64,000 nucleotides of DNA from Candidatus Binataceae bacterium (GCA_050736695.1 JBOHWH010000030.1:584-64583), one strand, 5' to 3'. Positions 33,822 through 43,939 are shown, counted from the first letter of the stretch. A program made the numbers and translations. The notes: a model not told the origin generated them from the sequence alone.

Positions 33822-34469
33822 ATGGGAAGCTCTGTGGCGGAAGAAAAGAAATACCTGCGCGCGATCCTTACGGACTGCCGCATCGCAATGACGCCTTCGT
33901 GCGCTCGCGCGCGGTCGCGGGAAATTGCGCGGCGGATCCTCGCGTCAGATTTCTACCGTGACGCGCACATCGCCTTGCTGTACGCCTCAACAGGCAACGA
34001 AGTTTCTACCGAAGCACTGCTGACCGACGCATTCGCGTCGGGGAAAATCGTGATGCTTCCGCGATATGATCGCGCACGCGGCCGCTATGAGGCCGCGCGT
34101 GTGGACGCGATCGATAAGCTCGTCGCCGGGGCATTTGGAATTCTCGAACCTCCCGCCGACGCGCCTGCTGCTTTGGCAAGCGATCTCGCCGGCGCTCTCG
34201 TCTGCGTACCCGGTGTTGCGTTCGGCGTGATGGGCCAGCGGTTGGGACGCGGCCAAGGCCATTATGATCGTTTCCTCGCGGAGTTCTGCGCGGACGCGAT
34301 CACGATTGGTCTTGCCTATTCGTTCCAGCTGCTCGAGCGGATTCCTGAACAGGAGTTCGATCGGCGGCTCAACTTGATCGTCACCGAGTCGGCCGTATAT
34401 CGCGCCGCGGATGCGTCTGGGCGTCCGCGCGATACGGCAGGCCAAGGAGGTACACCAGGGTGGCTCTGA
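33822..34469 (+). CDS. 5-formyltetrahydrofolate cyclo-ligase
   Basis: KKYLR N-terminus, GILEP, and PGVAFG..GQRLGRGQGHYDRFL. Confidence 0.85.
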   Translation: MGSSVAEEKKYLRAILTDCRIAMTPSCARARSREIARRILASDFYRDAHIALLYASTGNEVSTEALLTDAFASGKIVMLPRYDRARGRYEAARVDAIDKLVAGAFGILEPPADAPAALASDLAGALVCVPGVAFGVMGQRLGRGQGHYDRFLAEFCADAITIGLAYSFQLLERIPEQEFDRRLNLIVTESAVYRAADASGRPRDTAGQGGTPGWL

Positions 34470-36064
34470 TTACCGCAATCCTGGGATTCGTTGTTGGTGG
34501 CGCGGTCTTCTTTATTTGGGGAATGATGCGGCGGCGCACTGACGCCGTCGATCACGAGGCCGCGCGCGCTCAGGCCGAAGAAATTAGCAAAGACATAGCC
34601 AGGGAGGCTCAAACCAGAAGCGAACTGATCGTCAAAGAGGCCGAAATACAGGCCAAGGATCTGGTCGTCGGCGCGCGCGCCGATGCGGAGCGCGAGGTTC
34701 GCGACCGCAGGCGCGAGTTGCAGGCGGCGGAGTCCAAGCACGAATCGCGCGAAGAGGCGTTCGAAAAACGGCAAGAGGCGTTCGAACGCCGCGAAGCCGA
34801 TCTGAACCGCCGCGACCAGGCGATTCGCACGCGCGAAAAAAATATCACCGACAAGGAAGCGCAGCAGCAGGCGCAAATCGACGAAAAGATGGCGATGCAT
34901 CAGGGGTTGATCGATGAAGCCCGCACCAAGCTCGAAGCCGTCGCCGGGCTCACGCGCGAAGAAGCCAAACGCACCCTGATGGACGAGATGCTCGGGCAGG
35001 CGCGCACCGAATCGGCCAAGCATATCCGCGTGGTCGAGGAAGAGGCGCGCGAAGAGGCCGATCGTCGCGCCAAGCGAATCGTGTCGATCGCAATCGAACG
35101 GCTGGCGGGCGAGTTCGTCGCCGAGCGCACCGTGTCGGTGATCGCGCTGCCGTCGGACGAAATGAAGGGCCGCATCATCGGACGCGAAGGGCGCAATATC
35201 CGCGCAATCGAAGCTGCCACCGGCGTCGATATCATTATCGACGATACGCCCGAAGCGGTGGTCATTTCGTGCCACAACCCGATCCGGCGCGAGATTGCGC
35301 GGGTGGCGCTGGGTCATCTCATCTCCGACGGCCGCATCCATCCCGGAAGAATCGAAGAAGTCGTGCGCAAGGCCGAACAAGAGGTCGAGGAGTCGATCCG
35401 CGAGGCCGGGCAACGCGCGATAATCGAAGTCGGGGTGCATGGGATTCATCCGGAGCTGGTCAAGCTGCTCGGGATGCTCAAGTACCGGTATTCATACGCG
35501 CAGAACGTGCTGATGCATTCGATTGAGGCGGCGTTTATCTGCGGCGCGATGGCCGCGGAGCTGGGCCTCAACGAAAAGCAGGCGCGGCGCGCGGCGCTGC
35601 TGCACGATATCGGCAAGGCGCTGACTCACGAGGTCGAAGGCTCGCACGCGCTGATCGGCGGCGAGCTTGCGCGCAAGTACGGCGAGTCGGCCAAGATCGT
35701 CAACGCGATCGCGGCGCATCATGAAGAAGTGAAGGCCGAGACGATTCTGGCTCCGCTCGTCGATGCCGCCGACGCGCTGTCGGGAGCACGTCCGGGCGCG
35801 CGGCGCGAGGTGCTCGAGAGCTACGTCAAGCGGCTGGAAGATCTCGAGAAAATCGCCAAGTCGTTCAAGGGCGTCGAGAAATGCTTCGCCGTGCAGGCGG
35901 GGCGCGAGATGCGCGTGATCGTCGAGCCCAATCAGATCACTGACGAAGACACGGTGATGCTCGCGCGCGACGTGGCGCGCAAGATCGAAACCGACATGAC
36001 CTATCCCGGACAGATCCGGGTGACCGTCATCCGCGAAACCCGCGCGACCGAGCTCGCCAAGTAG
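34460..36064 (+). CDS. rny: Ribonuclease Y
   Basis: N-terminal TM helix, coiled coil, KH domain GRIIGREGRNIRAIE and HD domain LLHDIGKA. Confidence 0.9.
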   Translation: MALITAILGFVVGGAVFFIWGMMRRRTDAVDHEAARAQAEEISKDIAREAQTRSELIVKEAEIQAKDLVVGARADAEREVRDRRRELQAAESKHESREEAFEKRQEAFERREADLNRRDQAIRTREKNITDKEAQQQAQIDEKMAMHQGLIDEARTKLEAVAGLTREEAKRTLMDEMLGQARTESAKHIRVVEEEAREEADRRAKRIVSIAIERLAGEFVAERTVSVIALPSDEMKGRIIGREGRNIRAIEAATGVDIIIDDTPEAVVISCHNPIRREIARVALGHLISDGRIHPGRIEEVVRKAEQEVEESIREAGQRAIIEVGVHGIHPELVKLLGMLKYRYSYAQNVLMHSIEAAFICGAMAAELGLNEKQARRAALLHDIGKALTHEVEGSHALIGGELARKYGESAKIVNAIAAHHEEVKAETILAPLVDAADALSGARPGARREVLESYVKRLEDLEKIAKSFKGVEKCFAVQAGREMRVIVEPNQITDEDTVMLARDVARKIETDMTYPGQIRVTVIRETRATELAK

Positions 36065-36866: not shown

Positions 36867-37098
36867 TCACTCCGCAGCGGAGCCTGCCCTGAGCGGCGCC
36901 GAAGGGTTCAGAATGGCGATCCGACTTGAGCAGAGGCTCCGTGGCCGGAGCGGTCGCCCGCGCCGTATCACAAGCCGATCGCTGGGGCGCCGATACTGGC
37001 GAGAATCACCGCACCATCGATAGCTCCCCGCGTGAAAATTCGATGCGCGCGCGCCGGGTGGCGCGGCGTTGAATGGTTGGCTATATTTCCCGTAGTGC

Positions 37099-37174
37099 TG
37101 AGGAGTGGCCAAACTGGCAAGGCACCTGACTCTGGATCAGGGGATTGAAGGTTCGAATCCTTCCTCCTCAGCCA
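37099..37174 (+). tRNA. tRNA-Gln (anticodon CUG)
   Basis: Hand-folded. Acceptor TGAGGAG/CTCCTCA, 3-bp D-stem GCC/GGC, anticodon stem CCTGA/TCAGG with loop CUCUGGA, T-arm GAAGG-TTCGAAT-CCTTC, discriminator G and an encoded CCA. Confidence 0.9.
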
Positions 37175-37212
37175 ACCCACCATCGCCAGCGCGGTGGGGC
37201 GCATCGACGGAC

Positions 37213-37287
37213 GGTCCCATCGTCTAGTGGTTAGGACACCGGCCTCTCACGTCGGGAACGCGGGTTCGACTCCCGCTGGGATCACCA
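37213..37287 (+). tRNA. tRNA-Glu (anticodon CUC)
   Basis: Hand-folded. Acceptor GGTCCCA/TGGGATC, D-arm GTCT-AGTGGTTA-GGAC, anticodon loop CUCUCAC, T-arm GCGGG-TTCGACT-CCCGC and an encoded CCA. Confidence 0.9.
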
Positions 37288-37566
37288 GAACAGATCAATC
37301 ACTCAACGGCTACGGCTTCGTCGCCCGTTTCTCCTGGTGCTAAACGGGTGCCATCTTTTGGGCTGAGTGTGCCAACGAAATCGATATCTCGATGGCTTTT
37401 ACCGAATTGCTGTTTGGTATAAGCTTCACACACACTTTCCGAGCCCAAATATTAAGGGCGACGTTTTTGTCGACTTCTACGGCTTCTGCAGCGTTCCGTA
37501 TGAGGGCCTTTGAAAAGGGATGGGTTCTGTCCTAAAATTCAGGTCGGCAGAGGCAGGAGGAAGGAA

Positions 37567-38226
37567 ATGATGGCATGCGAAATATGTAGCGATCTTTCCT
37601 CGAAGGAGCCCGCGTTTTGGAACGAGTCGCTCTTCGAATCGGCCAATTTTCGTGTACTGCCCTCGCTCGGGGCGCTGGTTGAAGGTTGGTTGCTCTTGTT
37701 GCCGAAGCAGCATGCAATTTCGATGGGCGCACTGGGCGATGACCTCATTGCGGAGATGCAACATGTTAAGAATCTGCTGGTCTCGACAATGGAGCGACCC
37801 TACTCGTCAGTTTGCGCATTCGAACACGGTCCAAGCAGGGCTAATTCCCTAGTAGGCTGTGGAGTCGATCATGCACACTTGCACATCGTCGCGTTAAAGT
37901 TCGATCTGTTTTCTGCTCTTCAGCCATTCTTGCCGGGAGATGTACTTTGGTCTTCAGCATCTTTTGTCGAATGCCAGGCCGCGCACCGCAGAGGCGATGA
38001 CTATTTGTATCTCGAACAACCGATCGGATTGGGACGCCTTGCTAGCCACCGTGAGTTTGGTAGTCAGTTGTTCAGGCGCGCGATCGCTGCAGAAATTGGA
38101 TTGCCTGATCAGTTCAGCTGGCGTGAACATCCACAGCTGCCAAACGTATCAGCAACCATTCAACAAGCCAGAAAATGGGCCGCTAACCTCGATCCGTTGG
38201 ACCAGTTCAAGCGAGTTGCGGCCTGA
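37567..38226 (+). CDS. HIT (histidine triad) family nucleotide hydrolase/transferase with C-terminal extension
   Basis: N-terminal CEIC, LLLLPKQH, and histidine triad VDHAHLHIV. The start is set at the ATG at 37567, preceded by AGGAGGAAGGAA. Confidence 0.7.
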   Translation: MMACEICSDLSSKEPAFWNESLFESANFRVLPSLGALVEGWLLLLPKQHAISMGALGDDLIAEMQHVKNLLVSTMERPYSSVCAFEHGPSRANSLVGCGVDHAHLHIVALKFDLFSALQPFLPGDVLWSSASFVECQAAHRRGDDYLYLEQPIGLGRLASHREFGSQLFRRAIAAEIGLPDQFSWREHPQLPNVSATIQQARKWAANLDPLDQFKRVAA

Positions 38227-38348
38227 AGAAAACGGAAATACCGGAGTCGGAACAGGTCCTTGGCTTCGCGCCCACCGACCTGACTGACAAACGAAATCCT
38301 CTCGACTGGAAGTCGAGGTACTCAGACCCCGTAGCTCGCCGGGGTATC

Positions 38349-38855
38349 TTGATCGAATCCGCATACTTGGGAGTTCTCCTCGCGGCTGCGCCTCTTTTGA
38401 TGTTAGCTCTGTGGCTTGATCTTCCGAACAAATGGATGGGTCTCAGTCAGCAGAAGTATGGTTCCGTCTTAAAGTATGGCTTGGCATGGCTAGGCGGGAC
38501 TCTCGGAGGGACCCTATTCGATCTCAAGTGGCTCTATCACTCCATAGCTAAACAGTGGTGGCATCTCGATCGACGGTTGTGGCGTTTCTTTACGCCACAC
38601 ATCTCGGGAGGACTGGCATTCGCGATGATAGCTCTGATTTCCTCGGGCTTGTTTCGGGTCTTCGACGCGACCGCAACCAAATCCTGTTCGGTCGTTGTAG
38701 CCGTGTCTTTTTTGGTAGGTTATTTCTCGGATAGCGCCATCGCTAAGTTTACCGAGATAGCCGACATTCTATTTGGTACGGTGAGCGGTAAGGGAAAAGG
38801 CCGCGAACAACCCAAACCGCTTAGCTCCGACGGCGCGGACATTTCGGAGCAATGA
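38349..38855 (+). CDS. 4-TM membrane protein (hypothetical)
   Basis: 168 aa with four hydrophobic helices and a charged tail (GKGKGREQPKPLSSDGADISEQ). It has a TTG start, so the true start is uncertain. Confidence 0.5.
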   Translation: MIESAYLGVLLAAAPLLMLALWLDLPNKWMGLSQQKYGSVLKYGLAWLGGTLGGTLFDLKWLYHSIAKQWWHLDRRLWRFFTPHISGGLAFAMIALISSGLFRVFDATATKSCSVVVAVSFLVGYFSDSAIAKFTEIADILFGTVSGKGKGREQPKPLSSDGADISEQ

Positions 38856-38965
38856 TGTGTCCCACTGTCACCACATCAGCGAGCTATCTTAAGTACCGAC
38901 TTAGGGGCCTTTAGTTGCGAAGGTAACGAGTTGACGCAATCGCTGATCAGAAGTGGATACGGTCC

Positions 38966-39796
38966 GTGAGAGGCGCTTCTCCTCTTCGCTACCCTGGAGG
39001 TAAGTGGAGAATTGCACCATTCCTCCGACGTGTTATCGAAATCAACCATCTCGACGATCCGATCTATATAGAACCCTATGCGGGAGGCGCCAGTCTGGCT
39101 CTTAGCCTGCTCTTCGACGGTCTCGTAGCCGAGATTCATCTCAACGATCTAGATTTCGCAGTTTACGCTTTCTGGCGGAGTGTGCTCACGAACACGCGCG
39201 AACTCTTGAAACTAATTAGCGAAGTATCTGTCACACCGGACGAGTGGTACAAACAAAAGGCCATCTACGCAGAAGGTACACGGTCGGGTACGCTAGCACT
39301 TGGATTCGCGAAGTTCTTCCTAAACCGCACAAGCCACTCCGGGATTCTCAATGGTGGGATGATCGGGGGTAAAGAGCAAATGGGAAAATGGAAGTTAGAC
39401 GCGCGGTTTAACCGGGCCGAATTGGCCCGACGTATATCGCGCATCTCCTCCGCTAAGAACCATATATTCATAACCAGCCGAGATGCTCTCGATGTTCTCA
39501 AAGATTGCCGCTCGTCGCGGAAGAGATTAGTCTATCTTGACCCCCCATACTACCGGCCGGGACGGCACTTGTATCTCAACGACTATAAGCCTAATGATCA
39601 CTTTGCAGTTAGAAAATGTGTCGAGAAGCTCGTCTGTCCTTGGATTGTATCTTATGACGACGTGAACGAAATCAGGAAACTATATAAAGGCGTACACTGT
39701 AAACATCTTGCACTCTTGCACACGGCTAGTCGCGCTCATCTAGGTGCCGAAATCCTCTACTTTTCACCTGAGCTTCGTATTCCGAAGTCGATCTGA
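38966..39796 (+). CDS. D12-class N6-adenine DNA methyltransferase (Dam-like)
   Basis: LRYPGGKW, YIEPYAGGASLAL (SAM motif I) and YLDPPY (motif IV). Confidence 0.85.
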   Translation: MRGASPLRYPGGKWRIAPFLRRVIEINHLDDPIYIEPYAGGASLALSLLFDGLVAEIHLNDLDFAVYAFWRSVLTNTRELLKLISEVSVTPDEWYKQKAIYAEGTRSGTLALGFAKFFLNRTSHSGILNGGMIGGKEQMGKWKLDARFNRAELARRISRISSAKNHIFITSRDALDVLKDCRSSRKRLVYLDPPYYRPGRHLYLNDYKPNDHFAVRKCVEKLVCPWIVSYDDVNEIRKLYKGVHCKHLALLHTASRAHLGAEILYFSPELRIPKSI

Positions 39797-39860
39797 CAGA
39801 GGCTCCCTCAACGGGTCATTCGCGGTCCTTAATAAGACTACTCTCTAACTAAAATAAACT

Positions 39861-42536
39861 GTGATTTCTAAAGAGCACAACAATGCTAAGCGGCATCCGC
39901 AGCGGCGTGGTCATCGCGCGCTAGCCCCGATTTGCTCTGTCCTTCGGCTATCGAGAGAAGGTCCCGCTCAGCTTGAACCTTCGGAGATTTCAGTAGAGCA
40001 GATAGGCTGGAAAGCATATGGCCTTTGTTGCCTACCGCAACGTTGGGTGCCGCGTTTCTTCGTAATCGCGGCTTCTTCAGTCCAAACGCAAGCAAGGGAT
40101 TCAGCCTTTGAGGCATGGTTAGGCGACTGTTTACGGAAATCGGGTCTATCGGCCGACAAGGAATTATATGTACGGTCCAGCGGAACTGAAGAGACGTTAG
40201 ATCAACGAGGCCGTTTGGATTCCACCCGGTGCGCGATCGAAGATGTGTCGGATGCAATCCGACACATGCTATCTAATCTGAAGCGAAGTGATGCAGAGCA
40301 GCTGCATTGGGTAATTCAAGGGGCTGTCACTCCAGTCCGAAAGGGACACCTTTCGAATGTCAGACGATTGAGTAACGAGGGACGTGACTGGGTCGTGGAG
40401 ATCGAACCCGAATCTGTTCAGCTTGGATATACCACACAAATCGCCGTCAGAAATTGGCGAGACGCTGGAAATAGGTCTAATGCGTTTTTGACGTGCAGCT
40501 CTGAGACAGAGATCAACATCTCTTTGAAGCGCGTCGCGATGTGGGCGACGCCCTTAGTTTCACGAATTCACTTCGAATGGGTATGGGATGGTCAAACCGT
40601 TAGGATCGTTCAGGCCGACGCCGAAGAACACCGTCGTGGAACCGCTCCCAAGTCACTTCTGCAAGTCAGAATACCCAAGATCCAGGTTGAAGTGCTGCAG
40701 GTATTCAGAATAGCGAACTCAAATGACTACGGTCGCTACAAGAAGCTACGCAACGCAAAGATCTACCGGAGTTTCGGCTACCAGATGCCTACGTTTTATG
40801 TACTCGACGATGCGGAGGTTCTGAAATCTATCCGAGGGGGAGTGTTGCCTTCTCTATGTCTCGCAGATTTGGAAGAGCTTACCAAACGTCCACTAGTAAT
40901 CCGCACTGATGGCGACGCGATTCCTGAAAACAAGCGGGAGATGTTGCCACGAAGTGAAGATCTGAGGTCTTCCGCGCAAGCAGGGAAGTGGCTCTTGGAA
41001 GACTTTAGCAGGAAACTTCAGCAGAACGACTTAGGGGCTTCGGGTATATGCTTGATCGCGCATCACTTCATCCCGTCGGTCGCTTCCGCATGGGCACGTG
41101 CAGAGCCCAGCAATCCCATCGTTAGAATAGAGGCGCTATGGGGTGTCCCTGAAGGTTTGTATTGGTTTTCGCACGACACATTCGAAATTGACACGAAGGA
41201 AGCTCGGATCGGCGGTCACAGACCGGCTCAATGGAAGCGATATACCTCTTGGGAGCGTTTACGATACAAAGGACTGTTCATAGCCTCCGATCAGACTGGC
41301 AAGTGGATTACACATTCTACAAAGCCTCCGTATGACTGGGCTAAGAGCATAACGCGGGAGCAATGGCTCTTCGAGATCGCTGAAACAACGAGGCGAATTG
41401 CGGAGGCCGAACGTTATCCGGTGAGTGTCATGTGGTTCGTGGACAATCATCGCGAGATGAGCGCACATCCTATCTTGCCTTGGTATCACATGAGATCAGA
41501 GTTGTCTGGAGTCCTTAAACCGGCGGCGCCTCGACACAAATATCGATCTATTGGCGACCAGAAAATCAGGACTAGCAAAGATTGGGCGGATTTTAAGGAC
41601 GCGCTCGCGAGTGGTAAAAGGACGGAGCGAGTCATCGTTGAACCGGTTGATCCTGAATTAATCAGAAATCCCGGTTTTGCTGAAGAGCTTGGGAAGCTCG
41701 CTTCCGAAAAGAGATTTGTAATCGAACTCGCTGGCGGAATCTTGTCGCATGCTTACTACATACTACGACGTCTGAATGCCGACGTGGAATGTGTTGATTT
41801 GTTTGGAATGGACGAGGACGTGGTCGAATACAATAAAATTGTGCGAGACAAGGTTCCAAAGCGAATCGAAAGCCGCGGTGAAAGGGTAGAGAGTATTCAG
41901 CTGAAAGGCGAAGCGTTGATGCTCGCCCTTAGGCGAAAACTAGTTGAAGAAGCGTACGAAGCATTGGACGCGAGATCTGGAGAAGATCTCGTCTCTGAAC
42001 TGGCGGACCTGCAAGAAGTCGTGCTGGCATTGCTCAAAGCCATGCATTCTTCGGTGTCAGTGCTTGACATTGAGCGCAAGGGAAAGCGCCGCCGCCGGGG
42101 CGGGTTTTCCCAGAGATTGATGCTTGTAAAAACCGCGACTTTGCACTCTCTTCGGAAAGAACAACTCTCCGGTAAGTCTCGCATGCTAGACTTAAAGACT
42201 CGTGGTCAACCTGCCGCAGTAATTTCGAACCCAAAAGAGCTTCCCAGGGATCAGCTATATCGTCGCCCCGATCTGCGGTACCTCGCAGACAACGAAGTGG
42301 AAAAGTTGATCACGTTCGAAGTGACGGCGAGCCAGCTCGAAGAGAGTGGCCGCCAAACCTATCGGTTCCAAATGCCACTTGGCGAAGTCACAGCAAAGGA
42401 ATTTGAGCTCAGTGTGCAGCTCATCAGAGAAAGGTCCAGGATTCGCGGAGTCATCTCATTGCGTTCCGATCTTACGCGTTCTGAATCTAGCGATGTGGAA
42501 GCCCGGCAATTGAAACTGAAGTTGCCTGAATCCTAG
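39861..42536 (+). CDS. Multidomain protein: two PPDK_N-like ATP-grasp modules, PEP-utilizer phosphohistidine swivel domain, MazG/HisE-like NTP pyrophosphohydrolase and an unknown C-terminal domain
   Basis: Module 1 (aa 45-255): GWKAYGLCCLPQRWVPRFFVI, YVRSSGTEE, IHFEWVWDGQTVRIVQAD. Module 2 (aa 285-530): LVIRTDGD, VRIEALWGVPEGL, PVSVMWFVD. Swivel domain: VIVEPVDPEL..FVIELAGGILSHAYYILRRL (His630, nt 41748-41750). NTP-PPase: NKIVRDKVPKRIE..LVEEAYEAL..ELADLQEV..RRGGF. Confidence 0.65.
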   Translation: MISKEHNNAKRHPQRRGHRALAPICSVLRLSREGPAQLEPSEISVEQIGWKAYGLCCLPQRWVPRFFVIAASSVQTQARDSAFEAWLGDCLRKSGLSADKELYVRSSGTEETLDQRGRLDSTRCAIEDVSDAIRHMLSNLKRSDAEQLHWVIQGAVTPVRKGHLSNVRRLSNEGRDWVVEIEPESVQLGYTTQIAVRNWRDAGNRSNAFLTCSSETEINISLKRVAMWATPLVSRIHFEWVWDGQTVRIVQADAEEHRRGTAPKSLLQVRIPKIQVEVLQVFRIANSNDYGRYKKLRNAKIYRSFGYQMPTFYVLDDAEVLKSIRGGVLPSLCLADLEELTKRPLVIRTDGDAIPENKREMLPRSEDLRSSAQAGKWLLEDFSRKLQQNDLGASGICLIAHHFIPSVASAWARAEPSNPIVRIEALWGVPEGLYWFSHDTFEIDTKEARIGGHRPAQWKRYTSWERLRYKGLFIASDQTGKWITHSTKPPYDWAKSITREQWLFEIAETTRRIAEAERYPVSVMWFVDNHREMSAHPILPWYHMRSELSGVLKPAAPRHKYRSIGDQKIRTSKDWADFKDALASGKRTERVIVEPVDPELIRNPGFAEELGKLASEKRFVIELAGGILSHAYYILRRLNADVECVDLFGMDEDVVEYNKIVRDKVPKRIESRGERVESIQLKGEALMLALRRKLVEEAYEALDARSGEDLVSELADLQEVVLALLKAMHSSVSVLDIERKGKRRRRGGFSQRLMLVKTATLHSLRKEQLSGKSRMLDLKTRGQPAAVISNPKELPRDQLYRRPDLRYLADNEVEKLITFEVTASQLEESGRQTYRFQMPLGEVTAKEFELSVQLIRERSRIRGVISLRSDLTRSESSDVEARQLKLKLPES

Positions 42537-42615
42537 TAAAGGCGCTCTCGCAACTTGAGCTGCTTTCGGTGAATATAAGAAGTCTGGCTACTGCCCCTTC
42601 GGGTGGCTGAGCGCA

Positions 42616-42819
42616 TTGCGCATCCTGCGGGAAGGAACCCTCAACACTTATGCCCGCGTTGGATGTTTTTTGATCGCATTCGCGATGCTCGTTGTTCTTG
42701 CCGGCCGCGAGTACACTTCTTTTTTCAAGAACGCGCTGCCCACCTATCTGGTTCCGCTCTGCGCCTTCTTCGCGGGTTTGATTCTCGCCCGTCAACGGCG
42801 CCCGGCAATCGCAGGTTGA
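42616..42819 (+). CDS. Possible small 2-TM protein
   Basis: 67 aa with two hydrophobic stretches (VGCFLIAFAMLVVLA, LVPLCAFFAGLILA). There is no homology support, so it could be non-coding. Confidence 0.25.
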   Translation: MRILREGTLNTYARVGCFLIAFAMLVVLAGREYTSFFKNALPTYLVPLCAFFAGLILARQRRPAIAG

Positions 42820-42880
42820 AGGCTCCATTTGCTCGGTATGCGTTGGACGCGCGTTCGCGCCACGCAACGAACCGCACTGG

Positions 42881-43138
42881 CTAAGGCTTCGAGGTCGTCT
42901 GGGCGGTCGCCAGTAGAATGATCTCCTCGTGCGCGACGGTGCCGGCGGCGTAGGCCATCGCGGCATGGATATCTTCCCATTTCAGGCGGCGATATGCGTC
43001 AAGCTTTCGGTTTCTGTGGCTCGCTTAGCTTGCGCAGGAGTCAGCTCGACCGTGATTCGTGTGCCCTTGATCACGGGCTTGACGATCATCACCTCGGCGT
43101 TGATTTCGATCCTGTCAGTCGTCGCAAGAGGCCCTCAT
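42881..43138 (-). pseudogene. Degraded DUF433 (antitoxin-like) gene
   Basis: The reverse strand reads DRIEINAEVMIVKPVIKGTRITVEL, then LLRKLSE, then KLDAYRRLKWEDIHAAMAYAAGTVAHEEII in three different frames. That implies two frameshifts and an early stop after the putative ATG. Confidence 0.6.
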
Positions 43139-43273
43139 TCGCAGCTATTCCTACCCCCTCGCGAGGGCATTTAATCCGTCCGGGTAGGGAATCCGTATTA
43201 CATAGTGAGGCCGAATAGCTTGCGACGTCTGGACAGATCGTGCGTCGCAAACGCGTTCGTGGCACTGTTAATT

Positions 43274-43939
43274 ATGGAAAGACCGTCTCGTTTCCTCTCG
43301 TATGGCCGCGCGCGCTTGATGCTGGTCCTCATGGCAGTGCTCGTGCTGAGCGTGATGCCTGTGCGATTCGCGCGCGGCGCGGATTCCGCCACTGCTGCGA
43401 CGGAGCTCCAGACGGCGACGTTTGCCGGCGGGTGCTTCTGGTGTATGCAGCCCGCGTACGACAAGGTTCCCGGCGTCGTCAAGACGGTGGTCGGATATAC
43501 GGGAGGCCAGAAAGCGCATCCGACGTATGAGGAAGTGAGCTCCGGCACGACAGGCCACGCGGAGTCGATCCAGGTCACCTTCGATCCGAAAAGAGTCACC
43601 TATAAGCATCTGCTCGACATTTTTTGGCACAACGTTGATCCGACTACGTCCGACCGCGAATTCTGCGACGTCGGCAATCAGTACCGCAGTGAGATTTTCT
43701 ATCACGACGCCGAGCAGGAGCATTTGGCAAAAGAGTCAGAGGCCGAGATCGAGAAGACCAAGACCTTCAAGGAACCGATAGTCACGCAGATCGTTCCCGC
43801 GACGACGTTTTGGCCCGCCGAGGATTATCATCAGGATTTTTATCTGAAAAACGCGCTACGCTACCGTTTCTATCGCTACAATTGCGGCCGCGATTCGCGG
43901 CTGCGCCAGTTGTGGGGCGCGGCGAGCGGCGGTCATTAA
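43274..43939 (+). CDS. msrA: Peptide methionine-S-sulfoxide reductase, exported form
   Basis: GGCFWCMQ active site and GHAESIQVTFDP. A signal-like N-terminus follows the ATG at 43274. Confidence 0.9.
   Translation: MERPSRFLSYGRARLMLVLMAVLVLSVMPVRFARGADSATAATELQTATFAGGCFWCMQPAYDKVPGVVKTVVGYTGGQKAHPTYEEVSSGTTGHAESIQVTFDPKRVTYKHLLDIFWHNVDPTTSDREFCDVGNQYRSEIFYHDAEQEHLAKESEAEIEKTKTFKEPIVTQIVPATTFWPAEDYHQDFYLKNALRYRFYRYNCGRDSRLRQLWGAASGGH

Follow-up and report, generated by a model that had tools for sequence, protein, structure and literature searches.

A four-gene, methylase-linked cassette built around a PPDK-type ATP-grasp and MazG/HisE protein, and its possible role in defence

BREX/Pgl defence systems are linked to a methyltransferase, lack a nuclease, and rely on phosphotransfer enzymes, the kinase PglW and the phosphatase PglZ, whose substrate is unknown. 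The same logic, as an analogy only, is found in a four-gene cassette that we analyzed in a 64,000-nucleotide stretch of DNA from Candidatus Binataceae bacterium (GCA_050736695.1, JBOHWH010000030.1:584-64583; hereafter, the window). The last gene of this cassette encodes a multidomain protein of 891 amino acids (aa; hereafter, the large protein), and the other three encode a HIT-family protein, a small membrane protein and a D12-class DNA methyltransferase. Unlike BREX, the cassette contains no BREX component detectable by PADLOC, and its methylase is a small D12 enzyme, not PglX. PD-lambda-5 is a compact prophage system that combines restriction-modification (R-M) with abortive infection (Vassallo et al. 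2022, PMC9519451). The cassette methylase matches the PADLOC model PD-Lambda-5_B at an E-value of 1e-106, whereas the other three cassette proteins match neither PD-Lambda-5_A nor any other PADLOC model. In PUA-Cal-HAD, methylation is linked to a nucleotide-depleting effector and a Dam-dependent trigger, N6-methylated dAMP (m6-dAMP), has been shown; this family is often linked to an N6-adenine methylase, and rare variants carry MazG in place of the calcineurin domain (bioRxiv 10.64898/2026.01.15.699771). PUA-Cal-HAD thus resembles the cassette in joining adenine methylation to a nucleotide-depleting effector, with MazG as an alternative effector, but it has no ATP-grasp, HIT or membrane component, and the MazG of its rare variants is the sole shared domain. 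In the literature on MazG, HIT, ATP-grasp, dikinases, methyltransferases and defence we found no description of the cassette, which is no proof that it is undescribed.

Among enzymes, the closest structural match to the large protein is the rifampin phosphotransferase (RPH) RPH-Lm (PDB 5hv1, 5hv3, 5hv6, 5fbs), which has an N-terminal ATP-grasp of the PPDK_N type. Both proteins have the same order of ATP-grasp, middle domain and histidine domain. They differ in that the middle domain of RPH binds rifampin and is no ATP-grasp copy, its histidine domain is a canonical PEP-utilizers domain, and RPH lacks a MazG/HisE domain, a beta domain at the C-terminus, and partners such as a HIT protein, a membrane protein or a methylase. 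Phosphoenolpyruvate (PEP) synthase (PEPS; PpsA in Escherichia coli) and pyruvate phosphate dikinase (PPDK; PDB 1kbl) align locally with the large protein at their GGK, VRSS and EW...Q motifs, and the GGxxSH motif of the large protein aligns, marginally, on their catalytic histidine. In contrast to these enzymes, the large protein has a doubled ATP-grasp and lacks the PEP/pyruvate triosephosphate isomerase (TIM) barrel, and its sequence matches fall below curated thresholds; because the barrel is missing, it is not a PEPS or a PPDK. The MazG/HisE enzymes (PF03819, PF01503; PDB 1y6x, 3crc) share with it the EExxE...ExxD metal motif and KxVRDKIP, but they are normally small stand-alone dimers, whereas here the fold is one domain of a five-domain protein.

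We propose as the best-supported reading, at a probability of roughly 45%, that the cassette serves in defence against phages or other mobile DNA, as a nuclease-free, methylation-linked system working through nucleotide phosphotransfer and hydrolysis. The broader statement that it has a role in defence or in conflict with mobile genetic elements is the more probable one, with odds moderately in its favor. The cassette consists of four genes on the same strand of the window:

37567..38226, plus strand: HIT-family protein, 219 aa (ATG at 37567; the mechanically called open reading frame (ORF) runs from a TTG at 37510)
38349..38855, plus strand: small integral membrane protein, 168 aa, with 3-4 predicted transmembrane helices
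38966..39796, plus strand: D12-class N6-adenine DNA methyltransferase, 276 aa, with a DPPY motif (LVYLDPPYY)
39861..42536, plus strand: gene of the 891-aa multidomain protein (GTG start at 39861, stop codon 42534-42536, no internal stop)

We analyzed the conservation of this arrangement in 72 loci from contigs of one genome per species, in which six-frame ORFs were searched by jackhmmer; the counts below refer to the 55 loci in which the large gene is full-length and sufficient sequence is available upstream of it. In 54 of these, the HIT and membrane-protein genes immediately precede the large gene, and a D12 methylase is present in 50, abutting the cassette in 44. The methylase precedes the other three genes in 20 loci, stands between the membrane-protein gene and the large gene in 16, follows the large gene in 8, and lies elsewhere in the flank in 6. 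A complete cassette likewise accompanies a 76%-identical homologue of the large protein and a 47%-identical one in Methylomirabilis oxyfera. In 269 family proteins we found no fusion of the large protein with any of the other three cassette proteins.

The methylase itself is exchangeable. An SPPY-type methylase takes the place of the D12 enzyme in two loci, upstream of the HIT gene in L019 and convergent and downstream in L006. A remote variant on a Caulobacter rhizosphaerae plasmid (L079; NZ_CP048816.1, 18307-23930) encodes a 618-aa class I S-adenosylmethionine-dependent methyltransferase without a Pfam match, followed by hypothetical proteins of 213 and 189 aa, an 815-aa homologue of the large protein (24% identity) and, downstream, a GNAT protein. 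Such an exchange of methylase families speaks for methylation itself being needed or selected. The only full-length homologue with no recognizable HIT, membrane-protein or methylase neighbor is in a Desulfovibrio sp. metagenome-assembled genome (MAG; L066, 3885-6176 and 6986-9592), where a 763-aa upstream ORF has a weak match to the HIT profile (5e-6).

The cassette is horizontally mobile and is found in prophages, integrative elements and defence islands. In L091 it is embedded in a prophage, with a recombinase on one side and a terminase on the other, and in L092 it directly follows an integrase, an excisionase and a Prim-Pol module; in L089 it adjoins an MmeI-type R-M system, a PLD-SNF2 helicase and an ImmA/IrrE regulator. 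Shedu SduA_C is next to it in L001 and L085, the latter also with a TIR-kinase protein. L006 places it on a RepA/ParB plasmid-like element, and L003 near PIN/DUF433 toxin-antitoxin genes. Of 49 other loci, about 9 have transfer RNA genes, of differing identity, immediately next to the cassette. In PLSDB plasmids the large protein was found once, as a distant homologue, and no phage copies of the HIT or membrane protein were found in INPHARED or IMG/VR by tblastn and pattern scan. An earlier note on this DNA, made from the sequence alone, had considered the gene in isolation. Because the HIT protein, membrane protein and methyltransferase are standing partners and mobile elements carry the gene, the cassette context changes the question from an odd enzyme to an uncharacterized methylation-linked system. 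A defence function is read from this context, since PADLOC has no model for the large protein, the HIT protein or the membrane protein.

An ORF of 891 codons at 39861-42536 had been reported from the sequence alone in an earlier note on this DNA, and its coordinates proved exact; the frame is open throughout, the opposite strand across it is full of stops, and every motif string then quoted was found at the residues given. In a word-indexed search of 5.8 billion proteins we obtained 593 matches, which puts the ORF well outside chance; among the matches listed homologues are nearly all 860-900 aa long, with 94-100% query cover and 45-79% identity. Against 1.84 billion cluster representatives, the family profile found 680 clusters at E<=1e-30 (defined at 50% identity), rising to 4111 at E<=1e-10 and to 8543 at E<=1e-3. 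Homologues at ~50% identity occur across phyla (the 72 loci include Acidobacteriota, Nitrospira, 'delta proteobacteria', Patescibacteria, Dormibacterota and Bacillota), and there are cultured carriers in Paraburkholderia (P. bannensis), Achromobacter (A. aestuarii), Burkholderia cenocepacia (NCTC13227), Acinetobacter, Nitrosomonas ureae (Nm13) and Candidimonas. An alignment of 39 sequences is collinear over the full length, with 57% mean column identity and ~150 invariant columns spread throughout; K51, R105, E239, Q251, His630 and the acidic motif of the MazG/HisE domain are invariant in it and are retained at 24% identity. The possibility that two genes had been fused by an assembly error, on which the earlier note would have given up its call, is ruled out by full-length collinear homologues from many assemblies. 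In seven MAG loci (L048, L064, L068, L070, L072, L075 and L078) the large gene is split or truncated into ORF fragments of 128-565 aa beside neighbors that are still present; the fragments could be pseudogenes or assembly or frameshift errors.

The public gene call for this contig (P0001) is only 713 aa long and leaves out the first 178 residues (39861-40394). Judged by conservation, this call begins too late and the 891-aa reading is correct, because residues 20-178 are conserved, including the invariant G49, K51, R105 and S106. Source databases name the protein 'nucleoside triphosphate pyrophosphohydrolase' or 'house-cleaning NTP pyrophosphatase (MazG superfamily)', and a precomputed Pfam domain is attached to none of the entries. 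Our own Pfam scan of the window protein gave a single sub-threshold PRA-PH match (aa 689-728, 15.5 bits, cut-off 21.3), and scans with NCBIfam, PADLOC and PHROGs gave none. HMMER searches of PDB sequences, whether started from the single protein or from the full-length profile, returned nothing relevant; the best match, ribosomal protein eS7 at E 0.02, was taken as chance.

We modeled the large protein with AlphaFold2 from the family alignment (mean predicted local distance difference test score (pLDDT) 71; good for aa 20-640, poor beyond) and predicted aa 555-891 again from 118 sequences (pLDDT 82). It is a five-domain protein:

39918..40676, plus strand: N1, PPDK_N-type ATP-grasp, aa 20-272 (GWK51AYGL, VR105SSGTEET, FE239W...VQ251AD)
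40677..41516, plus strand: N2, diverged PPDK_N-like ATP-grasp, aa 273-552 (K295 and R348 kept; M524 and H543 at the putative Mg-ligand positions)
41538..41810, plus strand: small alpha/beta domain, aa 560-650, with His630 in LAGGILSHAYY (codon 41748-41750), a putative phospho-histidine carrier
41811..42155, plus strand: MazG/HisE-type all-alpha nucleoside triphosphate (NTP) pyrophosphohydrolase domain, aa 651-765 (NKIVRDKVP, EExxE, ExxD, RGGF)
42156..42533, plus strand: C-terminal region, aa 766-891, a linker with a conserved YRRPDLR and then a five-stranded antiparallel beta domain

Searching the PDB with the full model by Foldseek gave RPH as the top match, both full-length and as the isolated ATP-binding domain (E 6e-9 to 2e-7), together with HpeI (E 4e-8) and PPDK 1kbl (E 2.5e-4 over 522 columns); generic ATP-grasp enzymes (Ddl, SCS-beta, ACD, biotin carboxylase) ranked lower. 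Pfam PPDK_N (PF01326), with a gathering score of 27 bits that none of the family sequences scanned reached, had no match in the window protein. Its sub-threshold matches fall on N1 in the family consensus (51-145 to profile positions 3-93, 14.6 bits) and in P0253 (27-130 to 3-116, E 1.8e-4, 21.4 bits), and on N2 in the distant members P0154 (414-508 to 217-308) and P0241 (419-523 to 196-294, 17.2 bits). Local hhalign alignments to E. coli PpsA brought N1 onto VRSS (E 0.01) and residues 418-530 of N2 onto PpsA 216-326 (E 0.022), and the profiles of N1 and N2 aligned to each other at E 0.013 over FFV...VRSSG / FYVLD...IRTDG; forced global alignments of either module to PpsA 1-360 were meaningless. 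The two modules are well modeled (pLDDT 80-92 for N1 and 85-95 for N2), and the order of secondary structure elements in N2 is the same as in N1 and PPDK_N. Individually these matches are weak, but they are collinear and agree with the predicted structure, and we accept on that footing the tandem PPDK_N-like arrangement that had been suggested from motifs.

The earlier note had treated the two modules as equivalent, but they are not. The nucleotide- and Mg-binding set is complete in N1, with K51, R105, E239 and Q251 invariant. The N1 strands bearing the Glu and Gln (236-242 and 246-254) correspond to 521-529 and 538-545 in N2, where, in the model, invariant M524 and H543 would replace the Mg ligands E239 and Q251. 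N2 has invariant motifs of its own (HHFIPS, EMLPRS and WGxPEGLYWxSHDTFExD). It also occupies the place of the substrate-binding domain in RPH, where the order is ATP-grasp, substrate domain, histidine domain. Because of this position, N2 is a better candidate for the acceptor site than the MazG domain and, by analogy with RPH, the likeliest one.

For the MazG/HisE domain, sub-threshold PRA-PH matches were obtained in 19 of 39 family members, MazG-like matches in 4 and MazG matches in 2; P0190 clears the MazG cut-off (24.7 bits against 22) and the Caulobacter homologue that of PRA-PH (21.6 against 21.3). The profile aligned to E. coli MazG 35-62 (hhalign, E 0.0016), and Foldseek matched Mycobacterium tuberculosis PRA-PH 1y6x (probability 0.96, 26% identity, E 0.2). 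In the model the acidic helices span 683-701 and 707-727, and E696, E697, E700, D703, E713, D716 and E719 are invariant, so the metal site appears intact. The assignment of this domain, made initially from its motifs, is thereby upheld: weakly for the window protein itself, which stays at 15.5 bits against 21.3, and through relatives that pass and an invariant acidic motif. One subclade of 950-1024-aa proteins (P0143, P0146, P0222, P0241 and ~25 further representatives) has a ~100-residue insertion in this domain, between the second acidic helix and RGGF.

A PEP-utilizer TIM barrel, whose absence had been proposed, was not matched, nor would one fit: only ~240 residues come after His630, and they form a helical bundle and a small beta domain. 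The strands of the latter (fragment residues 246-315, ~aa 800-869) were modeled at pLDDT 75-88, and no match at E<=0.001 was found for the C-terminal fragment in the PDB or BFVD; the ~135 C-terminal residues that had been left unassigned are still so, now as a five-stranded beta domain without a structural match. This part of the protein is the most variable, the 35%-identity clade aligning only to ~residue 760. About 100 residues of the fragment model (41523-42533) resemble H6X4U7, an uncharacterized 93-aa protein of the Klebsiella jumbo phage RaK2 (TM-score 0.83 on the target, root-mean-square deviation 2.9, probability 1.00, E 8e-3).

Between N2 and the MazG/HisE domain, residues 566-645 are predicted to form a beta-alpha-beta-alpha-alpha-beta-alpha-beta unit, which would be the topology of the C-terminal two-thirds of the PEP-utilizers mobile domain. 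The strand FVIE and the loop LAGGILS lead directly into a helix (from 629) that His630 opens. Among the 39 sequences G625, L628 and H630 do not vary, and the LSH motif is retained in the 24%-identical Caulobacter homologue. Alignments of this segment, from the deeper alignment, to single E. coli PpsA, PtsI or PtsP sequences by hhalign were non-equivalent or random at the top. Of the swivelling histidine domain that had been proposed here, the GGxLSH motif is real and its histidine invariant, but Pfam and Foldseek did not recover the swivel fold. We put the chance that His630 is a phospho-carrier, a plausible role, at even. The earlier note had suggested a dikinase of the PEPS/PPDK/RPH type that lacks the usual acceptor domain, has an NTP pyrophosphatase fused instead and would act on a nucleotide or nucleic acid. 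Of this, the ATP-grasp, the MazG/HisE domain and the missing TIM barrel hold, but the phospho-histidine step rests on the motif and a marginal alignment. In terms of families, the large protein reaches PF01326 and MazG/PRA-PH only by structure, motifs and relatives, and is not a demonstrable member of PF00391.

The HIT protein carries a CxxC near its N-terminus, an FEHG motif, the histidine triad HAHLH and, at the C-terminus, an extension of ~100 aa that is specific to the family, with C4, C7, F85-E86-H87-G88, H102, H104 and H106 invariant. Its family profile matches Hint-type HIT structures (1y23, E 1.7e-7; 3o0m, E 1.8e-7), and orthologues exceed the Pfam HIT cut-off (27.4 bits in L006 and 21.9 bits in L003), so that by triad and structural similarity it belongs to the HIT superfamily. 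The membrane protein has hydrophobic Kyte-Doolittle segments at ~1-27 and, merged, at ~80-134, with a weaker one at ~38-58, and no match in Pfam, NCBIfam or PADLOC scans. Both have PHROG matches to families of unknown function (membrane protein, phrog_22917, 7.3e-8; HIT protein, phrog_23000, 4.6e-6). The methyltransferase, besides its PD-Lambda-5_B match, hits Pfam MethyltransfD12 (1.1e-18), PADLOC MTase_II (6e-93) and PDB 7m6b (4e-15). A nuclease domain was found in none of the other three cassette proteins, which sets the cassette apart from classical R-M.

We suggest that these parts could act together as follows. The large protein would be the large catalytic subunit of the cassette. N1 would be an active ATP-grasp of the PPDK/PEPS/RPH type that passes the beta-phosphate of ATP to His630, while N2, an ATP-grasp duplicate that appears to have lost its Mg-binding Glu and Gln and has its own invariant cluster of His, Asp and Arg, would hold the acceptor, probably a nucleotide. 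The MazG/HisE domain would split a nucleoside triphosphate to nucleoside monophosphate (NMP) and pyrophosphate. Combined, these activities would drain or chemically convert the nucleotide pool, with ATP going to AMP, NTP to NMP and possibly a phosphorylated nucleotide as product. The HIT enzyme might trim or reset a nucleotide adduct, and the membrane protein might serve as an anchor or a second effector. The role of the methyltransferase would be to tag host DNA as self, in the manner of R-M and BREX, or to supply a methylated-adenine nucleotide signal when host DNA is broken down. That a free nucleotide is the substrate of the large protein is a tentative view, which we hold at somewhat less than even odds.

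Several results weigh against the proposed defence system and its chemistry. The main gap is that no DNA-binding, sensor or methylation-reading domain was identified in the cassette proteins. In PADLOC-DB 2.0.0, whose known systems include BREX, DISARM and PD-lambda-5, only the methylase was matched; even at E up to 1-10 there was no match for the large protein, the HIT protein or the membrane protein. Of the contexts annotated with Pfam, about half (L005, L084, L086 and L090) are housekeeping ones. INPHARED phages and IMG/VR yielded no copy of the large protein, which fits a host system yet removes a line of evidence. As to the enzyme, the RPH match belongs to the full model, and the output does not resolve N1 from N2; the replacement of Mg ligands by M524 and H543 comes from strand offsets and the family alignment, there being no significant N1-N2 alignment at that place. 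Pfam PEP-utilizers (PF00391) had no match in the window protein, the 39 members, their consensus or distant members, and no PEP-utilizer chain was among the top 50 Foldseek matches of the aa 555-891 model. The alignment of VIELAGGILSHAYYILRRLNA onto a four-sequence mobile-domain profile of PpsA, PtsI, PtsP and PtsA does put the histidine on the catalytic histidine, at the marginal level of E 0.025-0.034 over 21-31 columns.

A more specific version of the chemistry is immunity by a swivelling-histidine dikinase, in which the beta-phosphate would travel via His630 to a nucleotide in the degenerate N2, possibly one with methylated adenine that degraded host DNA has set free, and yield a signal or toxin. 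The MazG/HisE domain and the HIT enzyme would then shape or destroy the phosphorylated nucleotide, and the membrane protein would read it. We regard this as unlikely; if true, bacterial immunity would gain its first dikinase, and the PEPS/PPDK/RPH class its first member with a nucleotide as acceptor.

HisE-type enzymes act on base-substituted ATP, which lends some support to the idea that the methylase serves to produce a signal. Under this hypothesis the methylase gives no protection to self DNA; host DNA is loaded with N6-methyladenine (m6A), and its phage-induced breakdown frees m6-dAMP, which is bound or phosphorylated by N2 or by the MazG/HisE pocket and sets off NTP depletion or the membrane effector. 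Free swapping of methylases would be easier to accommodate if only the modified base counts and a matched sequence specificity is unneeded. The Dam-dependent m6-dAMP trigger and the MazG variants of PUA-Cal-HAD offer a precedent (bioRxiv 10.64898/2026.01.15.699771). However, a PUA-like or other modified-base reader was not detected, the SPPY methylase may make N4-methylcytosine instead of m6A, and a host with a chromosomal Dam-type methylase would need none in the cassette. We consider a signal of this kind rather unlikely.

The linkage to a methylase also resembles the logic of R-M and BREX in another sense, that of action on nucleic acids: a restriction-like dikinase could phosphorylate the ends or sugars of unmethylated DNA or RNA, with the HIT protein acting like aprataxin on nucleotide-DNA adducts. 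Glucan water dikinase acts on a polymer, aprataxin is a HIT-family DNA 5'-adenylate hydrolase, and the HIT partner in the cassette has a CxxC and a conserved extra domain. Yet there is no DNA-binding, helicase or nuclease domain in the cassette, the nearest HIT structures are Hint-type small-molecule enzymes, and the fused MazG/HisE domain points to free nucleotides, so we think this improbable.

Since the swivel fold is unconfirmed, N1 and N2 might instead work as ordinary ATP-grasp ligases, joining two substrates by way of an acyl-phosphate, with His630 in a structural role or as a general base; Ddl, PsnB and PruB also match the model. The best matches nevertheless lie in the PPDK_N branch, by structure (RPH, HpeI, PPDK) and by sequence (Pfam PPDK_N), and the histidine stands in GGxxSH where a helix begins, immediately following the ATP-grasp modules, as is the case in that branch. 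We consider ligase activity quite improbable. HIT phosphoramidases confer immunity to peptidyl-nucleotide antibiotics, and a toxic-nucleotide module for an antibiotic or toxin immunity, with the HIT protein as immunity phosphoramidase and the membrane protein as exporter, would be compatible with a membrane protein beside nucleotide enzymes; a DNA adenine methylase, present in 50 of 55 loci, would have no role there, however, and a precursor peptide, a transporter family and further biosynthetic genes are not conserved nearby, which makes such a module very improbable.

A canonical 266-aa MazG is encoded ~7 kilobases downstream of the cassette in Methylomirabilis oxyfera (L003; FP565575.1), and because it lies in the same region the large protein is not the house-cleaning MazG of that organism. 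The house-cleaning NTP pyrophosphohydrolase of public annotation, which has the source names and the intact MazG motif in its favor, is hardly credible given that the MazG/HisE domain makes up only ~115 of 891 residues (13%) with the remaining 775 equally conserved, that the distribution is patchy and mobile with fixed gene partners, and that a canonical MazG exists elsewhere in the same genome.

Within the window, the four cassette genes make up a low-GC island at ~37000-43000, with a guanine-plus-cytosine (GC) fraction of 0.50-0.54 against 0.60-0.63 in the flanks. The GC drop, from ~0.62, starts directly after two tRNA genes located by ARAGORN at the left edge, and the island ends before msrA (43205..43939):

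37099-37174, plus strand: tRNA-Gln(CTG)
37213-37287, plus strand: tRNA-Glu(CTC)

RNase Y is encoded upstream of the island (34460..36064). Around the island we found only short direct repeats at chance level and no att-like ones, and no integrase. A promoter-like site precedes the HIT gene (37510-37538); such sites are no more numerous than in shuffled sequence. A 159-aa ORF on the minus strand (42487-42966) overlaps the 3' end of the large gene by 50 nucleotides and has no Pfam, NCBIfam or PADLOC match, and an unannotated 93-aa ORF on the plus strand (42603-42884) overlaps it in turn. A small ORF (58-222 aa) follows the large gene in several homologous loci too.

Should the cassette serve in defence, it would represent a nuclease-free, methylation-linked type beside BREX that uses a new enzyme chemistry. 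The dikinase reading, if true, would extend the PEPS/PPDK/RPH class to a nucleotide-related acceptor, with an ATP-grasp duplicate recruited as the acceptor site. Regardless, a large family spanning many phyla is labelled in databases merely as a house-cleaning pyrophosphatase, and the cassette offers a concrete, testable unit of four genes.

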